Virus record (IMG/VR): IMGVR_UViG_3300022804_000001
Direction: 5' to 3' (one strand)
Source: a virus
Length of the DNA: 64,000 nucleotides
The notes under the pieces are model-generated. The model did no database searches and was not told the DNA's origin. It saw only the letters and a program-made list of their open reading frames with translations. A program made the position numbers and the translations under genes. How positions within the stretch are numbered: position 1 is the first letter of the stretch; the number at the start of each line of letters is the position of its first letter. Below are positions 17,238 through 42,026 of the stretch, one piece after another.

Positions 17238-17239
17238 AT

Positions 17240-17998: not shown

Positions 17999-18092
17999 TG
18001 GGGTCCTCCGTTTCTCCGTTTGTTTCGCCTACCAGCAGGACAGCTTGAGGGCTGCCCTTTGCAATGCTGGCTTCGGCACGAAGATCGTAACG

Positions 18093-26632: not shown

Positions 26633-26635
26633 TAT

Positions 26636-28977: not shown

Positions 28978-28979
28978 TC

Positions 28980-29252
28980 TTAATGCTCCAGTAGATACTC
29001 TCTACCTTTATCAGTGAGCTGATATTTTTTCTGTTTGAACAATTCTTTTTCTTTGACTTCCTCAAGCAATCCGTATCGTTTAAGGTCTATGACAGCAGCT
29101 GTGACAGCAGCAACAGGTTCAATTTTATTAGGGTCATCAATATACTGACAAATACGAGCAATATCACCCATTGTTTGTACATCTTTAGTCATGAAAGTTT
29201 CAATGACTTTGAGTTCACGTAGTTTCGCTCTATGTCCAAAAGGGATTGACAT
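28980..29252 (-). CDS. small winged-helix DNA-binding-like protein
   Basis: 90 aa. MGDIARICQYI...VIDLKRYGLLEEV...KKYQLTDKGREYL resembles a PadR/MarR-type wHTH. Confidence 0.5.
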   Translation of the reverse strand: MSIPFGHRAKLRELKVIETFMTKDVQTMGDIARICQYIDDPNKIEPVAAVTAAVIDLKRYGLLEEVKEKELFKQKKYQLTDKGREYLLEH

Positions 29253-29261
29253 ATCTTTTCC

Positions 29262-29498
29262 TTATTTCTTTATATCGTAGTTGCCATCGATAATCCGTTC
29301 AGCAAGTGATAGTGCTTCTTCTTTTGAAGCAAAAGCGGCTATTCCTTGATGATCGGCTTCTAATACCCACGGTTTACTCTTGGTAGCTCCAACATTAGAC
29401 CATGACATCATATCCTTAGCAATCTTGTTCGCATTGAAAGATTTTATTTGGCTTCTATTCATGATAACATTGTTGTATTTGAACCAACGTTCTTCCAT
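29262..29498 (-). CDS. hypothetical protein
   Basis: The ATG at 29498 lies 9 nt after GGGAGGA and 1 nt after the upstream stop. The longer track start (29546) would overlap the upstream gene by 47 nt. Confidence 0.5.
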   Translation of the reverse strand: MEERWFKYNNVIMNRSQIKSFNANKIAKDMMSWSNVGATKSKPWVLEADHQGIAAFASKEEALSLAERIIDGNYDIKK

Positions 29499-29499
29499 T

Positions 29500-30423
29500 T
29501 TAGTAAAGTCCTCCCGGTCCTGTATAGAGTCTTGGGGCAGCGCCATGTAAATATTTTCTTGGTGTTGGAAGTGGTTCTATCCCCTCAAGAAACCCATAGT
29601 CAATCTCAGGTTCAGCTACGTTCATTAGACCAGGTGTCGGATTCAAATCGTCAAACGCAACTTCAAAGCCCGGCATCGTTATATCAGGAACTCCCATACT
29701 CATATCTGGCATAGTCGGTATGTGCGGTGCTGAAGGCATCGCATCAGGCAATTCCATGTTCGGTGGAATTGCCATCGGTGTTTGGGGCGGGGGCATTGTC
29801 ATGGGAACTGGTGAACGTGGTATCATCGGTGGCGGTAATACATCCGGCACAGCTGGCGTCCAACCGGGCGTCATCGACGGCGTCAATGGATCACGCGGTG
29901 TCAATGTCGGATCAGGAACATCGTCCCAATCGTTGGGTCCAACCGTCGGTGGCGTTAGCGGAGGATTCGTAAACATCGGTACAAGACCTATAGGTGGAAT
30001 AAATCGACCGCTTCTGCGAGCAGGTAACCCACCGGGATTGTAGGGTGTCATTGCACCACCACCACTGCGTACCATCGCACCACCAGGATTGTAAGGTGTC
30101 ATTGCACCACCGCTACGTACCATCGCACTACCTCCAGTTGGGACAGCTTTACCACCAGCGTTGTAAGGCATCATGCCACCGCCACCACTTTGAACCATAG
30201 AGTTGCTGCTCGGCATCATACCACCGCCACCGCTACGCATCATGTTAGGTCTCATGGTAGCGTTTCCTACCATATCATCAGCAATACTACCCGCGGTTCT
30301 ACCAGCTCGCGCACCTCTACCTGCAGTCCATAACGCACGACCTTCCTTCACTATATCCGCAGCAGAACGAAGCGGTTTACCAGCTCGCATTGCTAACTGA
30401 AGTGCTGTTTTTAGCATTCCCAT
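29500..30423 (-). CDS. Gly/Met/Pro-rich repeat protein (internal virion protein candidate)
   Basis: 307 aa. MVRSGGGAMTPYNPGG-type repeats. The C-terminal half is Pro-rich. AAAGGAG RBS. Confidence 0.65.
   Translation of the reverse strand: MGMLKTALQLAMRAGKPLRSAADIVKEGRALWTAGRGARAGRTAGSIADDMVGNATMRPNMMRSGGGGMMPSSNSMVQSGGGGMMPYNAGGKAVPTGGSAMVRSGGAMTPYNPGGAMVRSGGGAMTPYNPGGLPARRSGRFIPPIGLVPMFTNPPLTPPTVGPNDWDDVPDPTLTPRDPLTPSMTPGWTPAVPDVLPPPMIPRSPVPMTMPPPQTPMAIPPNMELPDAMPSAPHIPTMPDMSMGVPDITMPGFEVAFDDLNPTPGLMNVAEPEIDYGFLEGIEPLPTPRKYLHGAAPRLYTGPGGLY
30030..30245. repeat. 48-nt coding tandem repeat
   Basis: Units at 30030-30077 and 30078-30125 are about 90% identical. Further degenerate units run to about 30245. 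Each encodes a 16-aa MVRSGGGAMTPYNPGG unit. Confidence 0.7.
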
Positions 30424-30451
30424 AATCGTCTCCTTTTAACTATAAAGTAAT

Positions 30452-30477
30452 TTTCATATCTTTTAAAAGATATGAAA
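30452..30477. promoter_or_regulatory. perfect 26-bp AT-rich palindrome
   Basis: TTTCATATCTTTT|AAAAGATATGAAA lies in the 81-nt gap between two late genes, just upstream of the AAAGGAG RBS of 29500-30423. Confidence 0.5.
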
Positions 30478-30504
30478 TGATATGTAAATAATATAAAAGA
30501 TACG

Positions 30505-31257
30505 TTATCTACCTGTAAAACTGGGGTATGTTAGACGGCTTGCACCTGTTTTACTCCTGACTTGAGAGAAGGTATTTCCCAATTTACTTCCTCCACTTAA
30601 TGCTGGACGTTTTGAACCAATACCAGAGTTAACTTTCGGTATATGTGTGAACCCACCCCCTCGTTGTGTTCCGTATCCTCGTGGTGTTAATATCGGACTT
30701 CTGACACTGAACGGACTTTCTCCTAAAGAGACCGTCGGTTTCTGTGGTTGGCTATTCCGAAGTTCGTGTAGCAACCCTACAGTGTTCACAATTCCCATAC
30801 CTATTTGTCCTAATTCCGATCTACGTTGTGCGAGTAGATCATGTCCAAATCCCATACCCTGAAGCGATTGTGCTGCTAATGCATTCGTAAGTGCTTTGCT
30901 CTGTTCGGTATAGGTATCTGCCATGATTCGTCCAGCAATTGTACTATTTGTTAATCCTGATCTGCCTAAATAACCGCCTAACTCATGACGCATCTGATCG
31001 TAGTGTCCGCTCAACTGGTTCGCAAGATGGTTTTTGTAGCTAACTGGTAGAATTCCACTCGCTAACGCATCTGCTTGCTCAAGACGTTCTGCATTTTCTT
31101 CTGCGCCGAAATAACCTGATAGTCCGCCAATAAGCCCACCACCGATCGCGCCGATTACTGTACCGGGACCAGGGAAAAGTGAACCTATTGATGCACCTGT
31201 TGCGGCGCCGCTTAAGAGACCTGTGCCGGTGTCTGTTAGGTATGTTCGCCAAGCCAT
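30505..31257 (-). CDS. glycine-zipper membrane protein (internal virion protein candidate)
   Basis: 250 aa. N-terminal GATGASIGSLFPGPGTVIGAIGGGLIGGLSGYFG glycine-zipper TM segment. Confidence 0.6.
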   Translation of the reverse strand: MAWRTYLTDTGTGLLSGAATGASIGSLFPGPGTVIGAIGGGLIGGLSGYFGAEENAERLEQADALASGILPVSYKNHLANQLSGHYDQMRHELGGYLGRSGLTNSTIAGRIMADTYTEQSKALTNALAAQSLQGMGFGHDLLAQRRSELGQIGMGIVNTVGLLHELRNSQPQKPTVSLGESPFSVRSPILTPRGYGTQRGGGFTHIPKVNSGIGSKRPALSGGSKLGNTFSQVRSKTGASRLTYPSFTGR

Positions 31258-31466
31258 ACGGGTACTCCTCTCTGTTGTAAGGGCTTTATCATAACATGTT
31301 GATCATAAAATGCATTCTCTATCACACCTGAACCCCAATCTCGATGAAAAGCATCTAAATCAGCTAACACCGGCGGACGATTTGGCGGACACACTACGCT
31401 AAAAGGTGGTAGCAGCGCAAGACACATACAACCTATACTGGACTTTAGAAATTGGCGTCTATCCAC
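31236..31466 (-). CDS. small protein with twin-arginine (Tat) signal
   Basis: GTG at 31466-31464 lies 6 nt after GGGAGGA and overlaps the upstream stop (TAGTG). VDRRQFLKSSIGCMCLALLPPF matches the (S/T)RRxFLK consensus plus an h-region. 76 aa. Confidence 0.55.
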   Translation of the reverse strand: MDRRQFLKSSIGCMCLALLPPFSVVCPPNRPPVLADLDAFHRDWGSGVIENAFYDQHVMIKPLQQRGVPVWLGEHT

Positions 31467-31921
31467 TACTGTTCCTCCCAGTTCGGTCTGCTTGTTTTGC
31501 GTTGTGAGATAGGTGTGCAAGCCGTTATATCTTTGGTGTCTGTCGAAATCTCTATCATACGCGTTGCACCTCTTGAACAAATAATAAATTTTCCAACGAA
31601 TTCGGTATCGTGTGGCACATTAGGCAATCGTAGATGTAATTTACCTGTGTGTTCTCCATCATTTGGGTTTGGGTGTGTTGGTTCAAACCGTACCAGTGGT
31701 ATGTCTGTTGTAAGTTCATTTTCCTCTAAAGATGCGTCTTGTTCAGTGCGGTACCACTCTAACAAAAAAGCAAAAGCAGGCGGATCTCCGGGTGTATAAG
31801 TAAAGTTGCAAATGACTCTTGCGTTTGGTGCGCCGACGATTTCATCTTTTATATCCAATGTGGGTAGTTCATTCACATGGTCTTTGACTTGTGCGTATGC
31901 AACAAAACGTATCTTTGACAT
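31466..31921 (-). CDS. hypothetical protein
   Basis: 151-aa ATG ORF. Confidence 0.6.
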   Translation of the reverse strand: MSKIRFVAYAQVKDHVNELPTLDIKDEIVGAPNARVICNFTYTPGDPPAFAFLLEWYRTEQDASLEENELTTDIPLVRFEPTHPNPNDGEHTGKLHLRLPNVPHDTEFVGKFIICSRGATRMIEISTDTKDITACTPISQRKTSRPNWEEQ

Positions 31922-31932: not shown

Positions 31933-32874
31933 TCAGAAACATGATTCATAAAATGGCAAATTCTCTTCACAATAGTTTAGTGAGACTTTAGGAAACCACT
32001 CCGAAAGTAGTTCATAAAGTAACGGATCCTTCTCGGCAAATTCTTCATACGACTTATACTGTTGGGTTGTGAAGTCATCTCCAATATCGAAAAACCATGT
32101 CGCAAGTCCTTCTGCAAAATACTCCCAGTAAGCACCATGAAGTCTATTTGCTGCTTCAAAGGCAACCTCTACCTTCTCCAAGAATCCTGGTTGTAAACGC
32201 TCTATCTCCACATCTAATACGTGCGCTAATTCGTGAACAAATATCCATAACCTGTCTGATCTATAATTTCTGCCTTTCAAACGAGCCCTGCAATAACCAT
32301 TTATTCCAGGTGCGTTAAGATTGTGTGATACGTCACAACCGCTGGAGAACCATAGGTTGACGACCTCTGGGACATCCCATCCAGTTATAAAGTTTTTGAC
32401 AAGAATCATGTAAAATCCCTGTTCCATTCGTAGACGATTTCGAAGTTCAGGATGTTTTGATGTTATTGTCAAAATAGCCTCTCTGGCTTTAATAACAAGC
32501 AAATCTTCTACTTCTTCATGGGATACAATAGCTATACCATCAGCATCAATATATTTCGTATAGAACGCTTTCTGCAGCGTAAGCAGATCAGACTCCTCTA
32601 ATTCCTCTATCGGAACACCTGGAAATTTACGTTCTAAATTTTGTTTGAAAGTTTCATCAGCCCCTTCTGTAAAATACACACCTCGCCATGCTCTTATTCT
32701 GTCTTCTCTACCTGGTCCCATCGCTATTTCAAACACTTCATTTGGAGGCACAGTAACAGTAGGTGCACCAATAGATTCTAAACTCACAACCTGCACTGGG
32801 TCTAATGGAAGCTCATCACATCCCCAAATGCATAAAACTAAGCAAATAATCAGTAAATAACTTCTGACCTTCAT
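31933..32874 (-). CDS. exported HExxH zinc metallopeptidase (gluzincin / lethal-factor-like motif spacing), possible lipoprotein
   Basis: 313 aa, GGAG RBS. Signal peptide with Cys (LVLCIWGC). FVHELAHVLD followed ~30 aa later by YFAEGLATWF, which resembles the HExxH...E-FFAE arrangement of the ATLF/M34-like family. Confidence 0.6.
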   Translation of the reverse strand: MKVRSYLLIICLVLCIWGCDELPLDPVQVVSLESIGAPTVTVPPNEVFEIAMGPGREDRIRAWRGVYFTEGADETFKQNLERKFPGVPIEELEESDLLTLQKAFYTKYIDADGIAIVSHEEVEDLLVIKAREAILTITSKHPELRNRLRMEQGFYMILVKNFITGWDVPEVVNLWFSSGCDVSHNLNAPGINGYCRARLKGRNYRSDRLWIFVHELAHVLDVEIERLQPGFLEKVEVAFEAANRLHGAYWEYFAEGLATWFFDIGDDFTTQQYKSYEEFAEKDPLLYELLSEWFPKVSLNYCEENLPFYESCF

Positions 32875-32899: not shown

Positions 32900-32928
32900 T
32901 TGACATCTTTTACTTTTTTACATATAAT
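32900..32928 (+). promoter_or_regulatory. consensus sigma70 promoter TTGACA-17-TATAAT
   Basis: TTGACA at 32900-32905, exactly 17-nt spacer, TATAAT at 32923-32928. It lies 28 nt upstream of the ATG at 32957 (GAGG RBS). Confidence 0.8.
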
Positions 32929-32956: not shown

Positions 32957-33955
32957 ATGCGTAAGAATTCGCAACCTTTTCCTGATGGGCGTGTATCGTC
33001 TAAAAGTTTGATTGATCCGATCTATAAAGTGTTCTGGAACTTACCGACACTTGAAGAACCCCCTCCTACACCTGACAATCCGAGTTCAAATGTTATTGCG
33101 TTGAGTATTTTGTTCACGGATGCGTATAAACGCGTTGCGAACCTTGAGGCTTGGGTTCGTGGTGTTATTTATTCTCGTTGGTCAGCGTTGAAGTATACGG
33201 ATGCTGTATCCGAAAATGTTGCGGTCAAGCTCTATATTGAGGACATACTCAGACCCTCCCTTGAATCAACACTCATATCTAACTTTGTTGATCCTGACAA
33301 AGACGTATTGTGGTTTAGTGCGCCTCCTCTTGAAAGAAGTGATGATGGTTTCTGGGGTCATTTAGGCAAACAGATGTGTCCATATTGGGATACCCAGTTA
33401 GCCGATTATGATCGTATTCTTGTATGGGACGCGGATACGTTTTTCTTGCCCCGTCCACACACCATGTTTACAAAACTAAAAAGTCTTGAATCTGCTATGA
33501 TCGGTTATATTTTTGCGATAACAATGCCTTGGAAAGACTTCTACTATACATTCAAACACAAACTACGCAAGGATACCCGAAAAAGTGGTATTGAAATTGA
33601 AGAGTTGCTTGCTATGTCAGATATTGTATTTGACGAGTTCCCGGAGACCATCCAAAAACCGTTTGGCTCTATGTGGTCTTATCCGCCTAAACATTACCAT
33701 ACACACCATCAAGATTTTGTCCAGTGGATGCAGACGTACGCCCCTTACTATGGCAACGACGAGCTGGCTGCGGTTTGTTGGTCACACAAGTTTGGGATAA
33801 ACATCAAATCCCTTGATATTCTGTTAGATCTAAGAATGTATGATACACCTTCGTTTTTGACAAGTCCTGACACACACACCCAAAAAAATGTTTTACATGG
33901 ATTACCTTCAGTATCTCGGGAAGAAGTTTTCCGTGAAACACTGAAGATAATGTAG
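32957..33955 (+). CDS. GT-A-like glycosyltransferase paralogue (DxD), opposite strand
   Basis: 332 aa. ILVWDADTFFL (DxD). Shares the KLY(I/V)E and LGK boxes with 36476-37495 and 38072-39043. Confidence 0.55.
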   Translation: MRKNSQPFPDGRVSSKSLIDPIYKVFWNLPTLEEPPPTPDNPSSNVIALSILFTDAYKRVANLEAWVRGVIYSRWSALKYTDAVSENVAVKLYIEDILRPSLESTLISNFVDPDKDVLWFSAPPLERSDDGFWGHLGKQMCPYWDTQLADYDRILVWDADTFFLPRPHTMFTKLKSLESAMIGYIFAITMPWKDFYYTFKHKLRKDTRKSGIEIEELLAMSDIVFDEFPETIQKPFGSMWSYPPKHYHTHHQDFVQWMQTYAPYYGNDELAAVCWSHKFGINIKSLDILLDLRMYDTPSFLTSPDTHTQKNVLHGLPSVSREEVFRETLKIM

Positions 33956-33961
33956 GGATTT

Positions 33962-34411
33962 CTATGGATCTGTCAATGTGCCTTGTTGTATTGCGACCAA
34001 ACCGTAGATATTTGTTCCGTGTGCAACATTCGGTGTTCTACCATCAATTTCACCTTCTAACCAACCTGTTGGCGTTTCAGAGTCTTCAGATCGAGTTGCA
34101 TCTTGCGATCCCCTTGTAAATCCGTTATGGGAAAGACCTACACCTGACGGTGTATTTGATTCAGAAGCCTGATTTGGTATAGCCGGAATGTTGCCGTCTG
34201 CTGCCTCTGCTTCAATGAGTGCAGCTGCAGCATCTCTTGCTTCCGGTGTGCTAAAAAAGAAGACCTCTATGGAATCCGCTGCGGGACCGACCCCAGGATC
34301 ATACCGAATCCTTTTTGTGAATGCCGTTTCAGCACCGTGTGATTGATAACTGTCATTAGAATAGACCTCTATATCAGCGGGGATACTATCTGCTATTCGG
34401 AGTGTAAACAT
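33962..34411 (-). CDS. hypothetical protein
   Basis: The ATG at 34411 lies 1 nt after the upstream stop. An alternative GTG at 34429 lies 9 nt after AAGGAG. The C-terminal half is Ser/Thr/Gly-rich. Confidence 0.5.
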   Translation of the reverse strand: MFTLRIADSIPADIEVYSNDSYQSHGAETAFTKRIRYDPGVGPAADSIEVFFFSTPEARDAAAALIEAEAADGNIPAIPNQASESNTPSGVGLSHNGFTRGSQDATRSEDSETPTGWLEGEIDGRTPNVAHGTNIYGLVAIQQGTLTDP

Positions 34412-34412
34412 G

Positions 34413-34883
34413 TCAGTTGCATTTGGCACTATTTTCTTCTCCTTCCTTGTTTGTGTAATAAGCACAAGCAATTGCGCGCCTATTTTCGTTTTTGTGGTTT
34501 ACGTCAAGCATGGTATAAGCTTGTTCCATTTTTAAAATTGTTTTTTCATCTGCTAATGCTTTATTGAGTAAATAACACAGCGTTGGTTCAGTGATAAGTT
34601 TATCCAAAATATCTATGCGTGTGTAAGTATCGAGTAGTTTTTCTATCTCAAGCGGTCTTGGTTTTCTACTTTTGTATAATCCGCAGACAACCGCCAATAC
34701 TTCCTTGTTATCGTAAGTTACCTCGACGACATGACCTTCGCGACGCGTTTGTTGAAGTTGTTCTTCTGACAAATCAGGATTCAGCACAAAGCAGAGCAGT
34801 GGTTCATCTTCTGCAAGCATATCCTGAATTTTCTCTTGATCATCTGTTACTTCAAATATAAAACCATCCATAACTGTTGTCAT
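34413..34883 (-). CDS. hypothetical protein
   Basis: 156-aa ATG ORF with GAGGA RBS. Confidence 0.6.
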   Translation of the reverse strand: MTTVMDGFIFEVTDDQEKIQDMLAEDEPLLCFVLNPDLSEEQLQQTRREGHVVEVTYDNKEVLAVVCGLYKSRKPRPLEIEKLLDTYTRIDILDKLITEPTLCYLLNKALADEKTILKMEQAYTMLDVNHKNENRRAIACAYYTNKEGEENSAKCN

Positions 34884-35001
34884 CAGTAAATCCTCATTGT
34901 AAAGATCGCTGTCCGGTTTGGCATAGCGATCATAGCTTCCGCTACAGAATAAAACGGTATGATCACGGCATATATATTTCTGAATTTTCGTTTTTTGATT
35001 C

Positions 35002-35436
35002 TCACTTATGCATTCCTAAGACGACGAGTCCGTGTTGAGCCCTTACATCTGTTAATGCGTCAAAGATAGAAGCGTTGACTTTATTGTTTTCCAGGACATT
35101 AGTGAGTAGTTCTTTACTTACGAGAAATGGTGTATCTTTAACGAATTCATCAAGGTATGGATATGTGCTTTCAGGCAGATGGTACAATGCTCCTCCATCG
35201 AGGTCTATGTTATAGACGGGTGTTCCAGCTTCATCTATGTTGTTAATATCAAACAACACGACGGGTACGTTTGGTTTTATTGCGAGATGAAAATCTATAA
35301 AAGCGTTGATTTTCAGTGTAATATCAGTTGGATCTTCATCTTTCATCTCCGCAGGTGCGATGACAGCGAATTCAGTTTTATGTCTTTCAGAAGCACAAAC
35401 AGCCATATCGAATCTTGAAATTCTATCATTTTTCAT
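35002..35436 (-). CDS. hypothetical protein
   Basis: 144-aa ORF with an ATGA overlap to the upstream glycosyltransferase. Confidence 0.6.
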   Translation of the reverse strand: MKNDRISRFDMAVCASERHKTEFAVIAPAEMKDEDPTDITLKINAFIDFHLAIKPNVPVVLFDINNIDEAGTPVYNIDLDGGALYHLPESTYPYLDEFVKDTPFLVSKELLTNVLENNKVNASIFDALTDVRAQHGLVVLGMHK

Positions 35437-36476
35437 AGGATACTCCTGATGAAGTTGTTGAGTTGTTCTTGTGTAGCTTTGTAAGAGAAGTGTTCTTCAG
35501 CATATTTTCGTGCTTTGACCCCGAGTTCTTTGTCAGGGAGTTGTGTAAAATCCGCAGTCAGTTCTGCGAGAGCATCAATACACTCCTTTATATCAACAAA
35601 GCGAGCCGTCGTAGGTTGCTCATCATAGCATCGATGTTTGCCACAGACGCGTGGTTTACCACTTGAGAGAAGTTCCATCCCGAACCGATTGCAAGTTTCA
35701 TACTTCGGGTTCAACACACCGACCGCTGCCTTTCCGATTGTAGATGCGACCTTTGCTTGTGGCACTTGCCCATAAAACAGTTCAGTGTGTTTCTTGAGTT
35801 CGTGTTGAAGCCGTAAATCAGGTGGATTGAAATCTCCCCATCCGCCGGCACTTCCGACATAAGCGGTTTTATATTGTTTTTTATATTGCTTAAGTTCTTC
35901 AAATAACCGAATAAAGAACTCGGTTTGTTTCGCGTAGCTAATCGTCCCACCCGCAACGATAATTTTCTCCGTGTTCTCACTGGGTCTAAAGAGGTCGGTA
36001 TTTATCGGCTCATATAACACACCCAACACGGGCAGGTCAAAGTCTCTGAAATAATCTGCCTGCCATTCGCAGTTAGCGATCCATGCAGTAACTATTGTCT
36101 TGAGGCGATTGAGTTCATTTCCTGTCCAGCGAAAGATTTCCGAGTCACTGCCGTAGACAATCTTCGGTGCTGGATATGCCTCTAATTCCGAAACACGTTC
36201 CTCAAATCGTTCACGCGGGTTCAACAATCCCATTAGCTCAATCATAATCAAGTCATATTGCTTGATGGTATTAGCATCCTGCTGAGAACGCTCCTGCGGT
36301 GGTAGCCAAGTCTTTTCAATAGGGACTTCTGCAGCAGCAGTTGGCAGGCGATCTGCTACAGTAACGTCGTGCATATCCCATGCCTCTTGCATGCTGATAG
36401 TTTTCGTTCCCATTCCCCCAGCATTGCGATTTCTATTAAGAAAGTCAGTTCGAGTATAATAAAGTATATTTGCCAT
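35433..36476 (-). CDS. GT-B fold glycosyltransferase (GT4-like)
   Basis: 347 aa. The C-terminal half has ...IVAGGTISYAKQTEFFIRLFEEL...AYVGSAGGWG... and ETCNRFGMELLSSGKPRV, resembling the E-x7-E / G-x-P-V region of GT1/GT4 enzymes. Confidence 0.6.
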   Translation of the reverse strand: MANILYYTRTDFLNRNRNAGGMGTKTISMQEAWDMHDVTVADRLPTAAAEVPIEKTWLPPQERSQQDANTIKQYDLIMIELMGLLNPRERFEERVSELEAYPAPKIVYGSDSEIFRWTGNELNRLKTIVTAWIANCEWQADYFRDFDLPVLGVLYEPINTDLFRPSENTEKIIVAGGTISYAKQTEFFIRLFEELKQYKKQYKTAYVGSAGGWGDFNPPDLRLQHELKKHTELFYGQVPQAKVASTIGKAAVGVLNPKYETCNRFGMELLSSGKPRVCGKHRCYDEQPTTARFVDIKECIDALAELTADFTQLPDKELGVKARKYAEEHFSYKATQEQLNNFIRSIL

Positions 36477-37495
36477 TAGAAATTCCTTGTTAAATCTACA
36501 TAAAGTTTCGACATATACTCATCTGTTCTATCTTGTTCTCCAGCAAATACATGGACATGTGAGAAAAACGGATTAGTGCTGCCATGCAAATAATGACCTA
36601 TGACTGCATTCTGGTCAAAATACTGCCGAACACTCATTTTATTTTCAATCGAAAATGGTCTTTGATGAACATCAGGATACATATAATAGTAAGAAATAAA
36701 CAAGTTTTCATCTTGTCCACTCCTCTTGTAAAATGCCATTAAAAACTCATGTAAGTCGGGGTCGGATAAATTATACAATGTTAGACTGCTGTTGATATGA
36801 TATAATTCTTGAGGTCGGTTTACGGATGGATGTCCTGCTTTCTTCATAATTTCGGTCATTTGCGTCTTGAACGGCTCTGTTCTATCAAAATCATCAATAC
36901 CTAATCCTGTTGAGAGAATATGTATAATAGCATAAAAATCTACCGGTGCAGGGTCATTTGCTGTCCAAAAAGCGACAGTCTCAAAATCTAACAACTTGAT
37001 CTGTTCATAAAGATTTACAGGTTGATTAGGAACTGAGAGATACATATCACTATCAAGAAGCATTATAGTCTGATGATCCATCAAACGCTCGTCAAAAAGT
37101 GGTGATAACTTCCAACCAAGCGGTGCAGTATTGAGATCAAATTGATTTTCCCACCCATTTGTATCGAATAACATTCTGTGACGACCGCAAACATCAAAAT
37201 AATCAAACACAGCACTACTGAGTACTTCAACAGATTTTTGCACGTAAAAATAAATAGGTATACGCCTCGCTAAAAAATCTGAATTCCTTAATAAACACGC
37301 TGCTGCCCAAACTGCTGAATGACAATGTAATTGAAATTCCGTTGAGGAAAAAGGTGCAGATAAAGTGTTTCGCTCATCCTTAAATAACGGTATGACAACT
37401 ACTAAATCACTGTCGTAATCAGGTTCGTATTTGGGGAAATTGAATATAGGTAATTTCTCAATATAAGGTTTGTCAAATTTAGGAGTATCCGCCAT
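36476..37495 (-). CDS. GT-A-like glycosyltransferase paralogue (DxD)
   Basis: 339 aa. VVVIPLFKDE, IYFYVQ, LGWK and LLDSDMYL boxes are collinear with 38072-39043 and 32957-33955. Confidence 0.55.
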   Translation of the reverse strand: MADTPKFDKPYIEKLPIFNFPKYEPDYDSDLVVVIPLFKDERNTLSAPFSSTEFQLHCHSAVWAAACLLRNSDFLARRIPIYFYVQKSVEVLSSAVFDYFDVCGRHRMLFDTNGWENQFDLNTAPLGWKLSPLFDERLMDHQTIMLLDSDMYLSVPNQPVNLYEQIKLLDFETVAFWTANDPAPVDFYAIIHILSTGLGIDDFDRTEPFKTQMTEIMKKAGHPSVNRPQELYHINSSLTLYNLSDPDLHEFLMAFYKRSGQDENLFISYYYMYPDVHQRPFSIENKMSVRQYFDQNAVIGHYLHGSTNPFFSHVHVFAGEQDRTDEYMSKLYVDLTRNF

Positions 37496-38075
37496 TTTCT
37501 CTCACCTTGAAAATAATATTACTGTGGTCGCGTCTTCGAATCGCTTCCATTGAAGGATTACCTCTGTAGATTTGGATTTTTGTGTCATTAAATAATTCTA
37601 CACGTTGATCTATTTCTACATCAGGGACATCTTCAACAACTATCGCTGCATGTCTCTCATGCATAAACTGTTGATAATGCTTCCAAAAGAAATGTTGATC
37701 TTCTACATTATGTGAACCATCATCGATCAACAAATCAAAAGGTGCGAACGGATTGATATGATCTAAAACTTCTGGAACATAAGCATCTGAATGTATAAAA
37801 GCCATGCCTGTTGGAAGATCCGTATCTAACGGCTCGCGATCTACACCGACATATCTATTAATGTAAGTCATTTTCGCAAAAGCATGATAACTCGCTTCAA
37901 CACCCATATTGCTGACACCGACTTCAAGCACTTTTAACGGGCGCTGAATCCGACAAAGCAGTAAAGCAAAGATCATATCGTAAAACTCGTCATACCGATG
38001 ACTATGCATTTTATCAGTGTTGCTATCTGTCCGTAAATACGCTGTTGCAGGTTTAATAATGAATTCTTGTATCAA
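37479..38075 (-). CDS. class I SAM-dependent methyltransferase
   Basis: 198 aa. LKVLEVGVSNMG (motif I), YVGVD (post-I) and FDLLIDDGSH (CmcI / O-methyltransferase-like motif). Confidence 0.65.
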   Translation of the reverse strand: MIQEFIIKPATAYLRTDSNTDKMHSHRYDEFYDMIFALLLCRIQRPLKVLEVGVSNMGVEASYHAFAKMTYINRYVGVDREPLDTDLPTGMAFIHSDAYVPEVLDHINPFAPFDLLIDDGSHNVEDQHFFWKHYQQFMHERHAAIVVEDVPDVEIDQRVELFNDTKIQIYRGNPSMEAIRRRDHSNIIFKVRENGGYS

Positions 38076-39043
38076 AGATGAACCCCCATATCATGTTCTA
38101 AAATTTCTTTGTGATCTTGAACTGAAATATTCGCCATATGAAGTAAATATGGATCTGTCCCCTCATGCAGACTTGATAACGTATCAGAATGTGCCAAATT
38201 AAAATCAAAATTTTTCGAAATATCAAAAACTTCTTTTTTCTTCTGATGCCACATCGAAATAACACATTCATCGTCTTGCATAAGCCTGCCTGCACGGATA
38301 AGCCAATCTAAATCTTCTGATCGATGATGATGCAAATTTCTGATCGGATACGCTGTGAAAAATCCGCCACAAGTAATAAAGTCTCCAATGCCAGAATTTA
38401 TGTAAGGGGCAAGTTCCGCCTCACTTAAAAGTTCATTCGCTCGTTTTTCCCATTCCAAAATACATTCCCCCGGCGTAGAATTTAAAAGCAAACCGCCATA
38501 CCAATGTCCTTTAGAAATTACATCCTGCAAATCAGATGTCGATAATCCATAACAACCAATTGAGTTTTGCGAAAACATGTCAATTTTCTCAAAAAACCTT
38601 AGCTGCGTCCGCCGCGGCGAAGCAATACATAAGTCTGCATCACATGAAAATACCCAACTATAATCGTAAAAATATGAATCGCTTAACATCGAGAAACTCT
38701 TACCAAGATGAGTGACAGGATCACCTCGCAACTTCTCAGAATTCATGACAATTACATCCGATGAGATATCAACACTGTTCTTCTCAAGTAAAGACGAAAT
38801 ACGGTCTAATATCTCATTCTCTACATAGAGTTTTATGCTAATATCATGCACACGCGCATCACTAAATAAAATCCATGACCGCAGTGAATAACACGCTAAT
38901 TGTAGCATATTTTCCGACGGCACATAATGCGCGTTACCTTCCCTACCAAAAAGCGGTATAACCACGATGGCATCTTTGCTTTTACCGGGATAAGATTCTA
39001 TATCACGGCTAAGATGAGGAAATTGTGCTGCAAGATTATCCAT
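38072..39043 (-). CDS. GT-A-like glycosyltransferase paralogue (DxD)
   Basis: 323 aa. IVVIPLFGREGN, IKLYVEN, HLGKSF and SCDADLCI. Confidence 0.55.
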   Translation of the reverse strand: MDNLAAQFPHLSRDIESYPGKSKDAIVVIPLFGREGNAHYVPSENMLQLACYSLRSWILFSDARVHDISIKLYVENEILDRISSLLEKNSVDISSDVIVMNSEKLRGDPVTHLGKSFSMLSDSYFYDYSWVFSCDADLCIASPRRTQLRFFEKIDMFSQNSIGCYGLSTSDLQDVISKGHWYGGLLLNSTPGECILEWEKRANELLSEAELAPYINSGIGDFITCGGFFTAYPIRNLHHHRSEDLDWLIRAGRLMQDDECVISMWHQKKKEVFDISKNFDFNLAHSDTLSSLHEGTDPYLLHMANISVQDHKEILEHDMGVHL

Positions 39044-39752
39044 CTTGATCCACCAATATTCTGTCTTGATCTTTTACCCATTGGTCATGTCCAAACCATC
39101 TTGTATCAATACTTTTGATAGCGTAAGAAGTATCCCAAATAGAGTAAGTGCCAGGAACATCGACCATTTCACCGATCATCACCTCAAATGAACCGTTTGG
39201 ATTATTCTTGAAAGTTTCACGCAAGAACTTCGCACCTTCCCGGCTCATCAACAACCCTGAGTCTCCTGTGCCGAGTACCCCTTTACAGATTTTGGAAGTC
39301 GGTATCACAGGCACTTTCGGACGCGCCATTTCACCAAATGCCGGTGTATACCAAGACAACTGCAAGAACAGGAATGGATCGCTAAACGCGTTCGTTAGAA
39401 AATGACAGCACTCCTCAAGTTCTGGATATGTCAACAATAAAAGTTTGTCGTCCTGATTGTAGTATCCGTAAGCGTATTTCTCATCTGCTGCGATTGCTTC
39501 CATGATGCGATTTGTTCCCCACAGATAGCCGAGCGTGCCACGACCTACTTCCCGCAGTTTATCAAACTCTTCAAATCCGTCAGCAACCGCAGCATCGCAC
39601 ATCGCATCAGAAGACTCATACGATTTGCCATACTCAGCCTTATGAAATGTACAATGCTTATACGCATTATTGAGATGCGTTTCAAGATTACCAATGATGA
39701 TGTGTTTCCGATCTGTGCGGAAATCAAGATTGAGAAAGTGAAAGCCTATCAT
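39036..39752 (-). CDS. GT25-like glycosyltransferase (tentative)
   Basis: The ATG at 39752 overlaps the upstream stop (ATGA). MIGFHFLNLDFRTDRK..., GTLGYLWGTNRIMEAI and YNQDDKLL resemble the GT25 (Lic2B/LgtB-type) N-terminal pattern. Confidence 0.45.
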   Translation of the reverse strand: MIGFHFLNLDFRTDRKHIIIGNLETHLNNAYKHCTFHKAEYGKSYESSDAMCDAAVADGFEEFDKLREVGRGTLGYLWGTNRIMEAIAADEKYAYGYYNQDDKLLLLTYPELEECCHFLTNAFSDPFLFLQLSWYTPAFGEMARPKVPVIPTSKICKGVLGTGDSGLLMSREGAKFLRETFKNNPNGSFEVMIGEMVDVPGTYSIWDTSYAIKSIDTRWFGHDQWVKDQDRILVDQDG

Positions 39753-40057
39753 CAATCTGCTCCCGGATGGCACGTATGAAACGGTGTATCTGTCGAATGT
39801 TCCGCTAATACAACAGAAGGTGTCAAGTCTTCATCATTGTGTCCAGCAAAAGCATCAGGATAAAGTGATTCGACTTCACTCGGACAGTGTGCGAGATGTG
39901 GAATTACCAAACGGCAATCACCATCTATCTCCCAATACTCGTCCGCGGGTACATAACGCTGCTCTTTGAAAGACCACATCATTTTGCTATGATGCTTGAG
40001 AGGTGGCGTCTGAGGATCTTCTACTATATACTGAAATTTTAATTCCGGTTCACCCAT
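39752..40057 (-). CDS. hypothetical protein
   Basis: 101-aa ATG ORF, the first gene of the glycosylation operon. Confidence 0.55.
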   Translation of the reverse strand: MGEPELKFQYIVEDPQTPPLKHHSKMMWSFKEQRYVPADEYWEIDGDCRLVIPHLAHCPSEVESLYPDAFAGHNDEDLTPSVVLAEHSTDTPFHTCHPGAD

Positions 40058-40399: not shown

Positions 40400-40552
40400 T
40401 ATTTTATTGTAAAATACCAAACGATGATATATACTTAACAATGCATTGTTGGTGGGGAATTTCGGTTGCCTCGCACGAGGCAATCCCTACCATAACCGAC
40501 CGAAATCGGATAACAATGTATAATAACAGTGCGAACCTATAAGGAACACAAA

Positions 40553-40930
40553 ATGAAGTACTTTATCATTACACTCATGTTACTCAGTACCGTTCTATCA
40601 GCTCAGGCTGAACTGACACAAGACGATCTTGACAAAATTCAAAAGATTGTTGATGCCACTGAAACTCGGCTGAAAGAATACGTCAACATCAAAATTGACC
40701 CACTTGAAAAAAATATGAACAACCAATTTGAGCATGTTGACAAACGCATCACCGACACGAGAAATACGATATACGCGCTCATCGCTCTTATTATCGTTGC
40801 CATCGGTCTACCAGCTTGGCGTGACAGAAAAGACCGCAAATTTGAATCACAAATCGAAAAACAGATAGAAACCCTGACGGCTGAAATGGAGAACCTCAAA
40901 AACGAACGCATCCAATCTTCACAAGATTAG
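40553..40930 (+). CDS. exported/membrane coiled-coil protein, opposite strand
   Basis: ATG at 40553 after AAGGA. Signal peptide MKYFIITLMLLSTVLSAQA, an internal TM (IYALIALIIVAIGLPAW) and coiled-coil segments. Confidence 0.6.
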   Translation: MKYFIITLMLLSTVLSAQAELTQDDLDKIQKIVDATETRLKEYVNIKIDPLEKNMNNQFEHVDKRITDTRNTIYALIALIIVAIGLPAWRDRKDRKFESQIEKQIETLTAEMENLKNERIQSSQD

Positions 40931-41192: not shown

Positions 41193-42026
41193 TTATTCTC
41201 CTTTCAGATTGAAATACTTTTCATCACCGGTGTCTATCACCAGTGATACATGGTTATAGCGCGAATAGTTTTTTCGTGCTGCTTCTGATAACAATAACTC
41301 ACTGGCAGCCTTTTTCCAGTCCTGTGTTTTGACAGCGTCAATGAATTTCACAAACCCTTTGAAGTGCGGCAAGCCTAAGTTGTAAATAATGTCCAAGATT
41401 GCTTCTTGTCGGACTGTATCTATTTTATGCCAATCGCTACCGAACACACGCACTGCGTCTGTTAGAACAGACTTCAGATCATCTGCTAACAGGAGGTGCA
41501 TATCGTGTTTGGTTAGGGGTTTGGTAAATATCTGTTTTGCGGATTCAATAGAACTGATCTTGATACGTCCTTGTTGGATAGTCGCTGATTCAATAAGCAG
41601 ATCATAATCAAGGTTTGGGACAATTGCGCGGAGTTCTGCTGTTGTGACACCGTTTGTTTGGAGTGACCGACCGATTCCGATGGTCACAATTCCTTCTGAA
41701 TCGAGATACGGTTCTGGTTGGACACCTTCTTCAGCAATTATTAACTTTGCTATTCGAGATAGAGGCATACCCGACCTATTTTCCAACATATTGATATGTT
41801 TAATATGCGGATTCGGTTCAGTTGGTATCGGTGCATCTATTGCAGGTGCTGGTTGCGTCTCAATACTTTTGATTTTATTTTCAATACGAACATCCCATGT
41901 GACGACATATACCAACACAGCGATAATGGTGATTACCCATAAGATCTGCAGTGAATATGGTAATATTTTCTTAATCATTGTTTTATACCTTGATGGTTCT
42001 TGCCAGTGAATCTTATTCATTTTCAT
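41193..42026 (-). CDS. GH24 (T4-type) lysozyme endolysin with N-terminal membrane anchor
   Basis: 277 aa. EEGVQPEPYLDSEGIVTIGIGR reproduces the T4 lysozyme catalytic spacing E-x8-D-x5-T. N-terminal TM ILWVITIIAVLVYVVTW plus a Pro-rich linker. Confidence 0.85.
   Translation of the reverse strand: MKMNKIHWQEPSRYKTMIKKILPYSLQILWVITIIAVLVYVVTWDVRIENKIKSIETQPAPAIDAPIPTEPNPHIKHINMLENRSGMPLSRIAKLIIAEEGVQPEPYLDSEGIVTIGIGRSLQTNGVTTAELRAIVPNLDYDLLIESATIQQGRIKISSIESAKQIFTKPLTKHDMHLLLADDLKSVLTDAVRVFGSDWHKIDTVRQEAILDIIYNLGLPHFKGFVKFIDAVKTQDWKKAASELLLSEAARKNYSRYNHVSLVIDTGDEKYFNLKGE

Follow-up and report, generated by a model that had tools for sequence, protein, structure and literature searches.

Late genes of tailed phages that encode several glycosyltransferases raise the question of which glycan their products build and which molecule carries it. 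The locus analysed here lies in IMG/VR record IMGVR_UViG_3300022804_000001, a virus sequence of 64,000 nt (the window). Its source is a temperate tailed phage of an uncultivated lineage: the window encodes integrases and an excisionase, which makes it temperate, as well as a P22-like portal and an SU10-type adaptor. An earlier sequence-only reading had described a glycosylation island with five glycosyltransferase-like genes, one SAM methyltransferase and four unknown ORFs, and all of these ORFs were confirmed. On identical metagenome contigs another gene caller gave products of 238, 323, 198, 339, 347, 144, 156, 155 and 332 aa, and u101 was called there too (Table 1).

Table 1. Features of the module and of its surroundings in the window
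Feature	Position	Strand	Description
u101	39752-40057	-	101 aa; heads the coupled chain, 1-nt overlap with the following gene
GT25-like GT-A glycosyltransferase (putative)	39036-39752	-	238 aa; usual first enzyme of the module
P3	38072-39043	-	323 aa; predicted new GT-A-fold family; variable cassette
Sugar O-methyltransferase, MycE/TylE-like class I SAM (putative)	37479-38075	-	198 aa, TTG start; variable cassette
P2	36476-37495	-	339 aa; predicted new GT-A family; variable cassette
GT-B glycosyltransferase, GT4 type	35433-36476	-	347 aa; module core gene
u144	35002-35436	-	144 aa; follows the GT-B gene directly and overlaps it by 4 nt
u156	34413-34883	-	156 aa; internal two-fold repeat seen in alignment; conserved module member
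u155	33962-34429	-	155 aa; ~100-aa tail-block domain with Ser/Thr/Gly-rich insertion
P1	32957-33955	+	332 aa; predicted new GT-A family; sole opposite-strand gene of the module
Sigma-70 promoter, predicted	32900-32928	+	TTGACA-17-TATAAT, 12/12 consensus, 28 nt upstream of P1
o313	31933-32874	-	lipoprotein, HExxH...EYFAEG, zinc-metallohydrolase-like; conserved module member
o151	31466-31921	-	151 aa; carries the ~100-aa tail-block domain once; conserved in the module
Lysozyme	41193-42026		flank of the module
Tail-block protein	46733-48208	-	491 aa; three tandem copies of the o151/u155 domain; outside the module
Tail-fibre-like protein	49769-51748		flank of the module

Nine of the ten module genes are co-oriented and, for the most part, translationally coupled, and they lie within a late block on one strand that extends from the portal, adaptor, tail and lysis genes to a 2690-aa protein. 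The lysis and tail-type flanks that had been proposed are present as a lysozyme and a tail-fibre-like protein; for 18560-31257, where internal-protein genes had been proposed, the only matches were to a PHROG of unknown function, DprA_WH and Gly-zipper, which do not confirm that identity. Regarding the coupling, stop and start codons overlap by 1, 8, 4, 17, 1 and 4 nt from 40057 to 35002, and a second overlapping stretch (34883-33962) contains a 17-nt overlap. Nevertheless, a gap of 118 nt separates 35002 from 34883 and therefore the statement that all the co-oriented genes are chained was slightly overstated. The first gene of the chain, u101, has a partial homologue in one related contig (L010, 56% over 50 aa) and gave no match in family-database searches.

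Glycosyltransferases and methyltransferase

P1, P2 and P3 had been proposed as three mutually paralogous GT-A-like proteins. BLASTP gave E values of 2e-9 for P1-P3, 4e-6 for P1-P2 and 1e-5 for P2-P3, so that by sequence comparison they are true but distant paralogues. The boxes that had been read in them (VVIPLF, KLY(V/I)E, LGK and D(A/S)D) keep their order in the alignment, although P1 and P2 each depart from the consensus in one or two boxes. The profile built from the three proteins recovers 252 metagenomic cluster representatives at E<=1e-3 and 147 at E<=1e-10, which makes this a metagenomic family with at least 252 protein clusters. The sequence-only reading could not place these proteins in a family and neither could we: the family had no sequence match in Pfam, NCBIfam, PHROG or PDB, with 0 Pfam matches in 105 members, and judged by these searches it is new and previously unnamed.

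Among the five glycosyltransferases, P3 was the one given a three-dimensional model (AlphaFold2, 105-sequence alignment, pLDDT 93.3, pTM 0.92). The best 50 PDB matches listed by Foldseek were all GT-A glycosyltransferases (GT15, GT31, GT8, GT24 and others), with E values down to 1.4e-6 and TM 0.35-0.48 among those listed, and the structural matches in BFVD agree with this picture. The model thus predicts a nucleotide-sugar-transferase (GT-A) fold for the family, and therefore the objection that the sequence-only reading had raised against itself, namely paralogues lacking such a fold, falls away. The family alignment conserves D62, D122, D135xD137, D258-E259 and H302 (P3 numbering); the DxD, the DE and the C-terminal His are kept in all three paralogues, and P2 retains every conserved acidic and His position. 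P2 has the lowest GC of the region (0.359), and its orthologue in L007 (P0175, 48% identical) adjoins the GT-B gene. Furthermore, the family domain is fused to a methyltransferase and Glycos_transf_1 in P0116, to Glycos_transf_1 in P0146 and to a heptose-1-P adenylyltransferase-like domain in P0102. These are independent 'Rosetta stone' fusions of the family and argue for the reading preferred below.

The GT-B enzyme of GT4 type was confirmed by a match to Pfam Glycos_transf_1 (E 1.3e-6, 28.5 bits, gathering cut-off 26.4) and by PHROG 2170, annotated as glycosyltransferase. Its EX7E motif (E260-E268) keeps its position in every orthologue from the six related loci examined. The family (F4) is present in six related loci, and orthologue identity is 41-56% in L004, L006 and L007 and 28% in L010. 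The GT25-like protein, which had been assigned tentatively, gave no significant match when the window protein was searched as a single sequence. However, 4 of its 22 homologues match Pfam PF01755 (Glyco_transf_25, best E 2.2e-5), and GT25 proteins (mimivirus R655, COLGALT1 and 8xc8) were the sole PDB matches of the profile, at E ~0.2. R12, D14, R15, N99, D101-D102 and G163/G166 are invariant, and Q100, D164 and S165 are conserved in at least 90%. By remote homology this protein is probably a distant GT25 relative; its gene is the most conserved of the module, with 1-4 copies in related contigs.

The class I methyltransferase likewise gave weak, non-significant matches in the single-sequence search and gained support once homologues were added. 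The profile of 7 homologues matches TylE (8ia9, E 1e-5) and MycE (3ssm, E 3.3e-4) over motif I (vLEiGV) and the (L/I)IDD(G/A)xH box, which suggests by remote homology a MycE/TylE-type sugar O-methyltransferase; homologues occur in L004, L005, L006 and L007. With five glycosyltransferase-like proteins and one SAM methyltransferase, the idea that the enzymology is enough for a methylated oligosaccharide is supported. None of these enzymes has a hydrophobic or membrane segment; they are soluble and would act in the cytoplasm.

A conserved module with an exchangeable cassette

The module recurs with its gene order kept in at least nine other phage-like contigs, and two of these are viral genomes in IMG/VR. 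It comprises the GT25-like gene, a variable cassette, the GT-B gene, u144, the lipoprotein metallohydrolase, small domain proteins and a P1-like enzyme; all but the cassette and the lipoprotein form the core. Thus, the region represents this phage's own form of a conserved module and is not a private insertion, as the word island had implied. Its boundaries also had to be moved, as it reaches 31466 and includes the o313 and o151 families. In the window only P3, the methyltransferase and P2 are variable, and the GC of the variable block is 0.36-0.385 against 0.43 across the window. In relatives the cassette holds sulfotransferases, a kinase, radical SAM, epimerase or heptose-nucleotide enzymes and therefore the relatives would make differently capped glycans.

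As to the ORFs left as unknown, u144 indeed gave no match in family-database searches, and in L004, L006, L007, L011 and L013 the gene after the GT-B gene is likewise a u144 orthologue. The u156 family (F2) occurs in L004, L006 (twice), L010, L011 (twice) and L013. However, at least one of these ORFs, u155, is a single-domain relative of the tail-block protein, as is its neighbour o151. The HMM of the u155 family (F8; L004, L006, L011) matches the tail-block protein (E 5e-9) and o151 (2e-7). The HMM of the o151 family (F3; L004, L006, L010, L011, L013) matches u155 (E 0.0018) and, in hmmsearch, the tail-block protein with a full E of 8.8e-34 and domain values of 5.7e-8, 3.5e-13 and 7.1e-12. 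The tail-block protein has no Pfam or PHROG match, and the domain is found once more in 52314-52853. The protein u155 is a candidate acceptor or virion-associated protein. The lipoprotein o313 has a lipobox (LCIWGC) and a hydrophobic N-terminus, and its profile matches 9urd in the PDB, a 'substrate import-associated zinc metallohydrolase lipoprotein' (E 0.002). Its family (F5) occurs in L006 (three copies), L011 (two) and L013.

A P1-type gene closes the module in related contigs, with orthologues 45% identical in L006 and 43% in L004. Relative to the module it runs the opposite way in the window, L011, L013 and L015 and the same way in L004 and L006; L014 has a 315-aa opposite-strand gene at this place, a likeness of position. 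The P1 orthologues of L011 and L015 have the same perfect promoter hexamers at an equal distance to the ATG, with a different spacer. P1 would have a transcript of its own, driven by this strong host-type promoter.

Possible acceptors of the glycan

The reading that we prefer, although it falls short of probable, is a cytoplasmic, template-free glycan assembly line, expressed late with the virion and lysis genes and acting on a phage-encoded virion or tail protein. The GT25-like enzyme, P3, P2 and the GT4-type GT-B would add sugars in succession from host nucleotide-sugar pools, P3 and P2 as Mn2+/DxD-type GT-A enzymes, and the MycE/TylE-like enzyme would O-methylate one sugar. The acceptor would most likely be a phage-encoded protein, the leading candidates being the virion- or tail-associated proteins with the ~100-aa domain (u155, o151 and the tail-block protein). 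The late-operon position and the domain common to u155, o151 and the tail-block protein argue for a virion target, whereas Ser/Thr-rich C-termini of the kind seen in mycobacteriophages are absent from the head-region proteins (60774-58905). The temperate nature of the phage, the conserved promoter of P1 and the exported lipoprotein o313, not obviously a virion part, also count against a phage-protein acceptor; lysogenic-conversion genes often have their own promoter. Such a scheme would be akin to the O-glycosylation of mycobacteriophage virions and to the glycosylation of chlorovirus capsids. Glycosyltransferase (and methyltransferase) genes of actinobacteriophages have been read as glycosylating capsid and tail-tube C-termini (Freeman 2023, as reported in PMC12619734 and PMC13313380), and the soluble PBCV-1 protein A064R, with two glycosyltransferase domains and a methyltransferase, builds capsid glycans (PMC9614988).

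The main rival, which we consider rather unlikely, is remodelling of a host envelope glycan. Soluble enzymes working on the cytoplasmic side of the inner membrane would extend and methylate lipid-linked intermediates of the host (lipid A-core or LOS, or units carried on undecaprenyl-PP), the host's own flippases would export the product, and P1 would act in lysogens. The resulting receptor or serotype change would lead to superinfection exclusion or spare progeny adsorption to debris. GT25, GT4 and GT8-like GT-A enzymes are a typical LOS/LPS outer-core set; GT8 enzymes are among the structural matches of P3, and in relatives the new family is found fused to an HldE-domain-II-like adenylyltransferase, and the module also includes an HldD-like ADP-heptose epimerase. 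The enzymology is therefore just as compatible with a host-glycan target. The integrases and excisionase, the perfect P1 promoter kept in two orthologous loci and the exported lipoprotein of the module also point this way. However, the co-oriented, coupled genes sit in the late block and not beside the integrase as a moron would, and they are interleaved with genes for proteins sharing a domain with the tail-block protein. Moreover, known seroconverting phage systems use membrane enzymes, whereas this module has soluble enzymes and no flippase, polymerase, GtrA/GtrB-type or any other membrane protein.

Hypermodification of the phage DNA, in which an oligosaccharide, possibly methylated, would be put on hydroxylated pyrimidines and block restriction and other DNA-targeting defences, seems very improbable. 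It is true that phages are known to have GT-A and GT-B enzymes which assemble diverse glycans on 5hmC (bioRxiv 10.1101/2023.12.21.572611), that arabinosylated 5-hydroxycytosine is known (PMC13326640) and that related contigs have a dTMP-kinase-like P-loop kinase, radical SAM and an N6/N4 DNA methyltransferase in or beside the module. Nevertheless, all known pathways require a base with a hydroxyl group, which either a thymidylate-synthase homologue or a C5-methyltransferase plus 5mYOX/TET provides, with genes usually clustered with those of the glycosyltransferases (10.1101/2023.12.21.572611; PMC13326640), and a Pfam scan of ~70 window proteins found none of these enzymes. T4 beta-GT and base-J GT are absent from the P3 structural matches listed, the methyltransferase resembles sugar O-methyltransferases, and the module lies in the virion/lysis block and not with the replication genes. 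Finally, we regard as unlikely, to a lesser degree, that the product is a small-molecule or lipid glycoconjugate, or that a secreted phage protein is glycosylated before export, be it the lipoprotein o313 or, for example, a Ser/Thr/Pro-rich 524-aa protein (493-2067); either would imply a role outside the virion, for instance in interaction with an animal host matrix. There are no aglycone-biosynthesis genes, and the 524-aa protein is 30 kb distant, in another transcription unit, with no link to the module in related contigs. However, MycE/TylE relatives methylate sugars on small molecules, and the cassettes of relatives include Stf0-type sulfotransferases, a characterised homologue of which acts on a free disaccharide. 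On the side of a secreted protein, the 524-aa protein is Cys-rich and combines a hydrophobic segment at its N-terminus with a mucin-like TPSTPSTPTPSTP tract, and two L006 copies of the o313 family carry dockerin type I domains (E 3e-7 and 6e-6).

The module and its setting in the late block

The module encodes five soluble glycosyltransferase-type enzymes of three unrelated families together with one enzyme of the sugar O-methyltransferase type. It comprises ten genes, the order of which is conserved across divergent phage-like contigs (numbered with L in the table). Nine ORFs occupy the minus strand from 40057 to 33962, and the same products were predicted on identical contigs that occur in three public samples. 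From u101 to u144 (the number gives the length in aa of each small unknown protein) the successive stop/start overlaps are 1, 8, 4, 17, 1 and 4 nt; u144 is separated by a gap of 118 nt from u156, which shares 17 nt with u155. The sequence-only reading had located and described these ORFs correctly, and its claim that all of them are chained by overlaps holds except for that gap between u144 and u156.

Positions of the module genes, of other features of the window and of features of related contigs
Sequence	Feature	Position	Strand
Window	u101	39752-40057	-
Window	GT25-like enzyme, 238 aa	39036-39752	-
Window	P3, new GT-A family	38072-39043	-
Window	MT, methyltransferase, 198 aa	37479-38075	-
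Window	P2, new GT-A family	36476-37495	-
Window	GT-B enzyme, 347 aa	35433-36476	-
Window	u144	35002-35436	-
Window	u156	34413-34883	-
Window	u155	33962-34429	-
Window	P1, new GT-A family	32957-33955	+
Window	Promoter preceding P1	32900-32928	+
Window	o313	31933-32874	
Window	o151	31466-31921	
Window	Variable block P3-MT-P2	36476-39043	
Window	P22-like portal	61737-63902	-
Window	Head-region proteins	58905-61721	
Window	SU10-type adaptor	57715-58896	
Window	179-aa protein	52314-52853	
Window	Tail-fibre-like protein with Ser/Thr-rich tract	49769-51748	
Window	Tail-block protein, 491 aa	46733-48208	
Window	354-aa protein	45667-46731	
Window	Lysozyme of the lysis cassette	41193-42026	
Window	Signal-peptide protein	40529-40930	+
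Window	2690-aa protein	18560-26632	-
Window	524-aa Cys-rich protein	493-2067	-
L004	Cassette	10849-14644	
L006	Cassette	4075-6055	
L013	Cassette	12194-14242	
L015	Cassette	6872-8843	
L011	Cassette		
L011, L015	P1-like promoter	~30-60 nt upstream of P1-like genes	
L006	o313 relatives	7764-8723, 16393-17559, 17978-19141	
L013	P0102, fusion protein of 452 aa	10001-11359	
L014	ADP-glyceromanno-heptose-6-epimerase-like gene	7635-8465	
L005	Tandem GT25-like paralogues	10001-13118	
L006	N6/N4 DNA methyltransferase	12206-13654	
L011	N6/N4 DNA methyltransferase	8166-9626	
L014	N6/N4 DNA methyltransferase	11104-11658	
L015	N6/N4 DNA methyltransferase	1-868	

Regarding the surroundings, the window encodes a portal, an adaptor, a major head protein, tail proteins and tail-fibre-like proteins, a lysis cassette, and also integrases, an excisionase and a beta clamp, and it is a novel temperate tailed phage. 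No tRNA genes were found in the window. The gene block from the portal to the 2690-aa protein is on the minus strand and therefore the module, which has the same orientation, lies within the late block, downstream of lysis, which bears out the embedding among virion genes that had been proposed from the sequence; the genes at 18560-31257 are putative internal-protein genes. The island had no match, at DNA or protein level, in 50,697 GenBank phage records, and the portal matched a single Bacillus phage at 24% identity, so this phage has no annotated relative among them.

Two other genes of this region deserve a comment. Between the lysis genes and the module, the minus-strand block is broken by a plus-strand gene, the product of which has a signal peptide and, at its C-terminal end, a hydrophobic segment. 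The 2690-aa protein, possibly a giant protein that is ejected or resides inside the virion, carries a DprA winged-helix domain at residues 633-691 and matches PHROG 5143 (unknown function); in L004 a 4104-aa protein is found at the homologous position.

Using the GT25-like enzyme and the new GT-A family as queries we retrieved long phage-like contigs of 39-399 kb, which include two IMG/VR viral genomes and one TARA-labelled metagenome scaffold. L004 (also L008; CATOTL010000002.1, 80,316 bp) is binned in the MAG of an 'uncultured Poribacteria bacterium'. Poribacteria are sponge symbionts, and this bin and the TARA label are weak evidence regarding host and habitat. When all the ORFs of the related contigs were clustered, a recurring order emerged: it starts with one to four copies of the GT25-like gene, continues with variable enzymes, the GT-B gene and the u144 family, and ends with the o313, o151, u156 and u155 families and a P1-like enzyme. 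Because o313 and o151 belong to this order, the module reaches 31466, past the left boundary set in the sequence-only reading. The GT-B orthologues are 41-56% identical in L004, L006 and L007 and 28% in L010, and the P1-like enzymes of the related contigs are 43-45% identical to P1. We rejected the acquisition of an island by this phage alone, since it is contradicted by the conserved synteny. The word island thus suits the middle, variable part, and the whole is a conserved module.

This middle part consists of P3, MT and P2 in the window; its counterpart in L007 combines a Stf0-like/methyltransferase fusion with a P2 orthologue, and in L004, L006, L011, L013 and L015 it contains two Stf0-type sulfotransferases and a dTMP-kinase-like P-loop kinase, with an additional radical SAM/SPASM enzyme in L004. 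L005 and L014 have epimerases, that of L014 being ADP-heptose-6-epimerase-like. The Stf0-type enzymes of the relatives resemble trehalose 2-sulfotransferase, which implies that those phages would make sulfated glycans. The block of the window has a GC content of 0.36-0.385 and a GC3 of 0.29-0.32, and the genes at its flanks have 0.437 (GT25-like) and 0.450 (GT-B); its low GC is consistent with cassette exchange. Two further features were seen in the relatives. L005 (UViG_3300007743_000001, IMG/VR) has 3-4 GT25-like paralogues in tandem with an epimerase-like gene interleaved, and an N6/N4 DNA methyltransferase gene repeatedly adjoins the P1-like end of the module, a place where the window has none.

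P1 is the only module gene on the opposite strand, and it is preceded by a perfect TTGACA-17-TATAAT promoter (12/12). The same perfect boxes are found at the same distance upstream of the P1 orthologues in L011 and L015, with a different spacer sequence. A consensus promoter scan gave 28 sites against 27.4 in shuffled sequence, which is no excess, and we gave weight to the 12/12 site alone, as it is conserved in orthologous loci. This conservation indicates that P1 is probably transcribed apart from the late block by a host sigma-70-type RNA polymerase, and suggests a putative host with canonical sigma-70 promoters.

The enzymes

P1, P2 and P3 are 17-23% identical to each other, with pairwise BLASTP E values of 2e-9, 4e-6 and 1e-5. 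A CRISPR-like or repeat origin of this similarity was rejected, because at such identities they are paralogues at the protein level and not DNA repeats. None of them matched Pfam, PHROGs, NCBIfam or PDB sequences, and P3 as a lone query had no match in IMG/VR. Among 1.84 billion cluster representatives, however, a profile of the three paralogues detected 252 proteins at E<=1e-3, of which 147 reached E<=1e-10. The family therefore includes at least 252 clusters (at the 50% identity level), all of them metagenomic and unannotated. A homologue search with a 105-sequence family profile returned 4 proteins. The same profile had no match among PDB sequences, and among the 105 members a single one had a Pfam match, to DUF5672 at E 0.0027.

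In the alignment of these 105 sequences D62, D122, the DxD motif D135xD137 and H302 (P3 numbering) are near-invariant: D135 is kept in 99% of the members, D137 in 96% and H302 in 94%, and the pair D258-E259 is conserved in 82% and 90%. The three paralogues keep every one of these positions, the DxD motif being D158xD160 in P1 and D148xD150 in P2. H302 is a candidate C-terminal metal ligand and D258-E259 are candidate acidic residues of the 'xED' type. The AlphaFold2 model of P3 built from the 105-sequence alignment had a pLDDT of 93.3 and a pTM of 0.92; with the three paralogues alone as alignment the pLDDT was 45 and the model unusable. Foldseek found 58 PDB matches of the good model at E<=1e-3 (best 1.4e-6), and the best 50 of the 58 were all GT-A glycosyltransferases, with TM scores of 0.35-0.48 and identities of 6-15%. 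They included members of GT15 (Ktr4p, Kre2p), GT31 (B3GNT2, B3GalT5), GT8 (XXYLT1, glycogenin, LARGE1), GT24 (UGGT), GT71 and GT6, as well as hyaluronan synthase. In the viral structure library BFVD the matches were giant-virus and phage glycosyltransferases, GT8 and DUF5672 proteins, most of them GT-A. P3 thus has, by its model, the single Rossmann-like alpha/beta/alpha fold of GT-A enzymes, and P1 and P2 have it by homology to P3. The fold and the metal/nucleotide motifs are present and the profile searches (Pfam, NCBIfam, PHROG and PDB sequences) gave no assignment, so these are enzymes of GT-A type, yet without detectable membership of a named family. Both points agree with the sequence-only reading, which had proposed three GT-A-like paralogues and could not assign them to a CAZy family by eye.

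Natural fusions support a probable role of the family in glycan synthesis. P0116 (891 aa) joins the family domain to a methyltransferase and a Glycos_transf_1 domain, P0146 (971 aa) joins it to Glycos_transf_1, and in P0102 it follows an RfaE-domain-II/HldE-like heptose-1-phosphate adenylyltransferase. The epimerase-like gene of L014 adjoins another member of the family. Together with the P0102 fusion, this neighbour hints that ADP-heptose may be the donor for some members.

The GT-B enzyme is of GT4 type according to both its profile and its EX7E motif. It matches Pfam Glycos_transf_1 with 28.5 bits (gathering cut-off 26.4; E 1.3e-6) and the glycosyltransferases of PHROG 2170, and its motif, E260-TCNRFGM-E268, recurs at the equivalent position of the orthologues from each of the six related loci examined. 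The tight subfamily to which it belongs was absent from the IMG/VR and JGI metagenome scans. As a single sequence, the GT25-like enzyme had no Pfam match at E<=1. Among its 22 homologues, 4 match PF01755 Glyco_transf_25 (best E 2.2e-5), and a precomputed annotation assigns one of the homologues to PF01755. All seven PDB matches of its profile, at E values of only ~0.2-0.3 each, are GT25 proteins or mimivirus R655, and include R655 itself, procollagen galactosyltransferase 1 and a bacterial GT25. These alignments pair the N-terminal LNLxxRxDR box with INLKRRTDRR, take in the acidic DD box and extend to the G-rich C-terminal box. We read the enzyme as a probable remote relative of GT25, as had been tentatively guessed, and a profile-profile comparison found no relationship of its family to the new GT-A family.

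MT alone gave weak methyltransferase signals only. A profile of 7 sequences matched the macrolide deoxysugar O-methyltransferases TylE (8ia9, E 1e-5) and MycE (3ssm, E 3.3e-4) in the PDB, over SAM motif I and the (L/I)IDD(G/A)xH box, and E51, G53, D118-D119 and H122 are invariant across the 7 homologues. It is a putative MycE/TylE-type class I SAM enzyme, for which methylation of a sugar hydroxyl is predicted. MT shares a homologous catalytic core with those two enzymes, but it has 198 aa against ~400 and does not have their N-terminal auxiliary domain.

None of the island proteins contains a hydrophobic segment (19-residue Kyte-Doolittle maximum <=1.26 for every one), and therefore all are predicted to be soluble and cytoplasmic. 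Hydropathy and Pfam searches of the island found no membrane component of Gtr-type or O-antigen-modifying phage systems: no GtrA flippase, GtrB bactoprenol glycosyltransferase, GT-C type transferase, Wzy or acyltransferase.

Small proteins and possible acceptors

The HMMs of the o151 and u155 families match each other and define a domain of ~100 aa, with the consensus YxxGxPxAxxF..W..ESDAxxNxNxLT..IP..P..P...G...YG..I.Q. There is a single copy in o151 and in u155, where a Ser/Thr/Gly-rich insertion splits it. Three tandem copies are found in the tail-block protein (full E 8.8e-34) and one copy, with a weaker match, in the 179-aa protein. The domain had no Pfam match, and a profile search of the PDB gave no significant one. 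By eye, an N-terminal MP(D/N)xxDv..L.v is common to the 491-aa tail-block protein, the 354-aa protein and u155. The o313 family, which is conserved inside the module, consists of lipoproteins in which acidic residues come after the lipobox and which carry the signature HExxH...E(Y)(F/W)AEG. Its profile has a weak PDB match to 9urd, a 'substrate import-associated zinc metallohydrolase lipoprotein', and two of its three relatives in L006 end in a dockerin type I domain. Finally, u156 and its homologues, which match no family, show an internal two-fold repeat of ~70 aa with the pattern ..P..C.LLN..L......L...Y.V..V.H.G....A...G.Y...

With nucleotide sugars of the host as donors, the module enzymes would build a short hetero-oligosaccharide, which O-methylation would cap. 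Regarding the acceptor, we tentatively favour a phage (virion) protein, at somewhat less than an even chance, because of the late-operon position and the translational coupling, because no membrane or export component is present, because the interleaved small proteins share a domain with the tail-block protein, and because there are precedents in actinobacteriophages (PMC12619734 and PMC13313380, both citing Freeman et al. 2023) and chloroviruses (PMC9614988). What counts against a virion acceptor is that the head-region proteins have no Ser/Thr-rich C-terminal tail of the mycobacteriophage type; Ser/Thr-rich tracts were found elsewhere, namely in the tail-block protein, in the tail-fibre-like protein at 49769-51748, in the u155 insertion and in the 524-aa Cys-rich protein. 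In Gram-negative bacteria the outer-core sets of LOS and LPS consist of GT25 (LgtB, Lic2A, LpsA), GT8 (LgtC, WaaJ, WaaO) and GT4 (WaaG) enzymes. LPS/LOS core synthesis uses exactly the enzyme classes of the module and the heptose link of its relatives; moreover, the phage is temperate and P1 has its own host-type promoter. Remodelling of a host envelope glycan is therefore a serious rival, with a somewhat lower probability than the virion acceptor. The likeness includes the mode of action, soluble or peripheral, sequential and template-free, and a heptose-nucleotide link in the related modules, and by analogy LOS/LPS outer-core assembly is the enzymatically closest toolkit. However, the genes of the window are phage-borne, lie in a late operon and are interleaved with genes for tail-related domain proteins; Pfam detected no GT8 membership of the GT-A paralogues (105 members), and the GT25 relationship is remote.

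Glycosylation of the phage DNA is very improbable. In phages with hypermodified DNA several GT-A and GT-B enzymes also build oligosaccharides, but in every known pathway a thymidylate-synthase homologue, or a C5-methyltransferase with 5mYOX/TET, provides the hydroxyl-bearing pyrimidine from which it starts, and the hydroxylating enzyme genes are usually clustered with those of the glycosyltransferases (10.1101/2023.12.21.572611; PMC13326640). No base-hydroxylating or hydroxymethylating enzyme is detectable in the window: among its ~70 scanned proteins (ORFs of at least about 85 aa, ~4 kb of the 67.9-kb contig being outside the window) there is no Pfam family of the thymidylate-synthase-like, TET/5mYOX or C5-methyltransferase kind. 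Returning to the phage-protein acceptor, a fuller version of it, to which we give a low probability, is a widespread clade of uncultivated, apparently marine or invertebrate-associated tailed phages with a dedicated virion glycosylation of the ~100-aa domain, carried in the tail and in the small module proteins. The new GT-A family would be at its centre, and the cassette would diversify the cap, which would be O-methyl in the window and O-sulfate, phosphate or heptose elsewhere.

Relation to known systems and significance

Phage-encoded glycosylation beyond DNA and the host O-antigen is documented mainly for mycobacteriophages. Functionally, virion O-glycosylation in these phages and capsid glycan synthesis in PBCV-1 are, by analogy, the closest systems. 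In the first (Freeman et al. 2023, Cell Host Microbe 31:1216, as described in PMC12619734 and PMC13313380), soluble phage glycosyltransferases, sometimes with a methyltransferase, are encoded in or near the structural genes, and late in infection they presumably modify phage proteins in the cytoplasm, much as we propose for the module. In the window the glycosyltransferase genes are likewise within or next to virion genes. In contrast, the acceptors described for mycobacteriophages are Ser/Thr-bearing C-terminal extensions of capsid and tail-tube subunits, which the head-region proteins of the window do not have, and there are one to a few glycosyltransferases there against five here. Moreover, the window phage has a P22/SU10-type portal and adaptor and probably a Gram-negative host, its GT-A family is a different, unnamed one, and its module, a putative glycosylation system, has a swappable capping cassette (methyl or sulfate).

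In PBCV-1 the capsid glycosylation enzymes A064R, A061L and A111/114R are virus-encoded and soluble and assemble the glycan in several steps. The GT-A enzymes among them are hard to classify by sequence, and the pathway ends, like the one suggested for the window, in O-methylation of a terminal sugar (PMC9614988). The combination of two glycosyltransferases and a methyltransferase is mirrored by P0116 of the new family. However, this is a giant virus of a eukaryotic host with N-linked glycans on the major capsid protein (PMC9614988), several activities reside on one polypeptide, and there is no sequence relationship to the window proteins. The window proteins share the GT-A fold, the GT4-type GT-B and the MycE/TylE-type core with known enzymes, and the module does not fall within a named GT-A family, the mycobacteriophage acceptor architecture, the DNA-hypermodification clusters or Gtr-type seroconversion.

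In the searchable literature we found no description of this module nor of phage modules pairing these glycosyltransferases with sulfotransferases. What is new is a GT-A family of at least 252 clusters, now with a confident structural model, and an architecture of a core plus an exchangeable capping cassette (methyl, sulfate or heptose). Should a virion protein prove to be the acceptor, a new phage lineage, probably of Gram-negative hosts, would join those with virion glycosylation, and the conserved ~100-aa domain would be a testable acceptor. Under the fuller, low-probability version, the module would represent the first case of virion glycosylation beyond the actinobacteriophages, and in an animal holobiont glycans bearing sulfate or methyl groups could help in adhesion to a receptor or matrix, or in shielding. 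If the acceptor is host LPS, the module would be an unusual seroconversion system, soluble and encoded in a late operon. In either case, synthetic copies of its genes can be tested in E. coli, with no need to culture the phage.

A last observation concerns the 524-aa Cys-rich protein, the gene of which belongs to a separate transcription unit in the left arm of the window, where the integrase, excisionase and replication genes are also found. This protein matches no family; its N-terminus includes a hydrophobic segment, and it contains tracts that resemble mucin (TPSTPSTPTPSTPKVSTPGSASLSPSSGSS; GSSSTTSSTSS). It may be secreted and of moron type, and it is conceivable that it is a glycosylation substrate.
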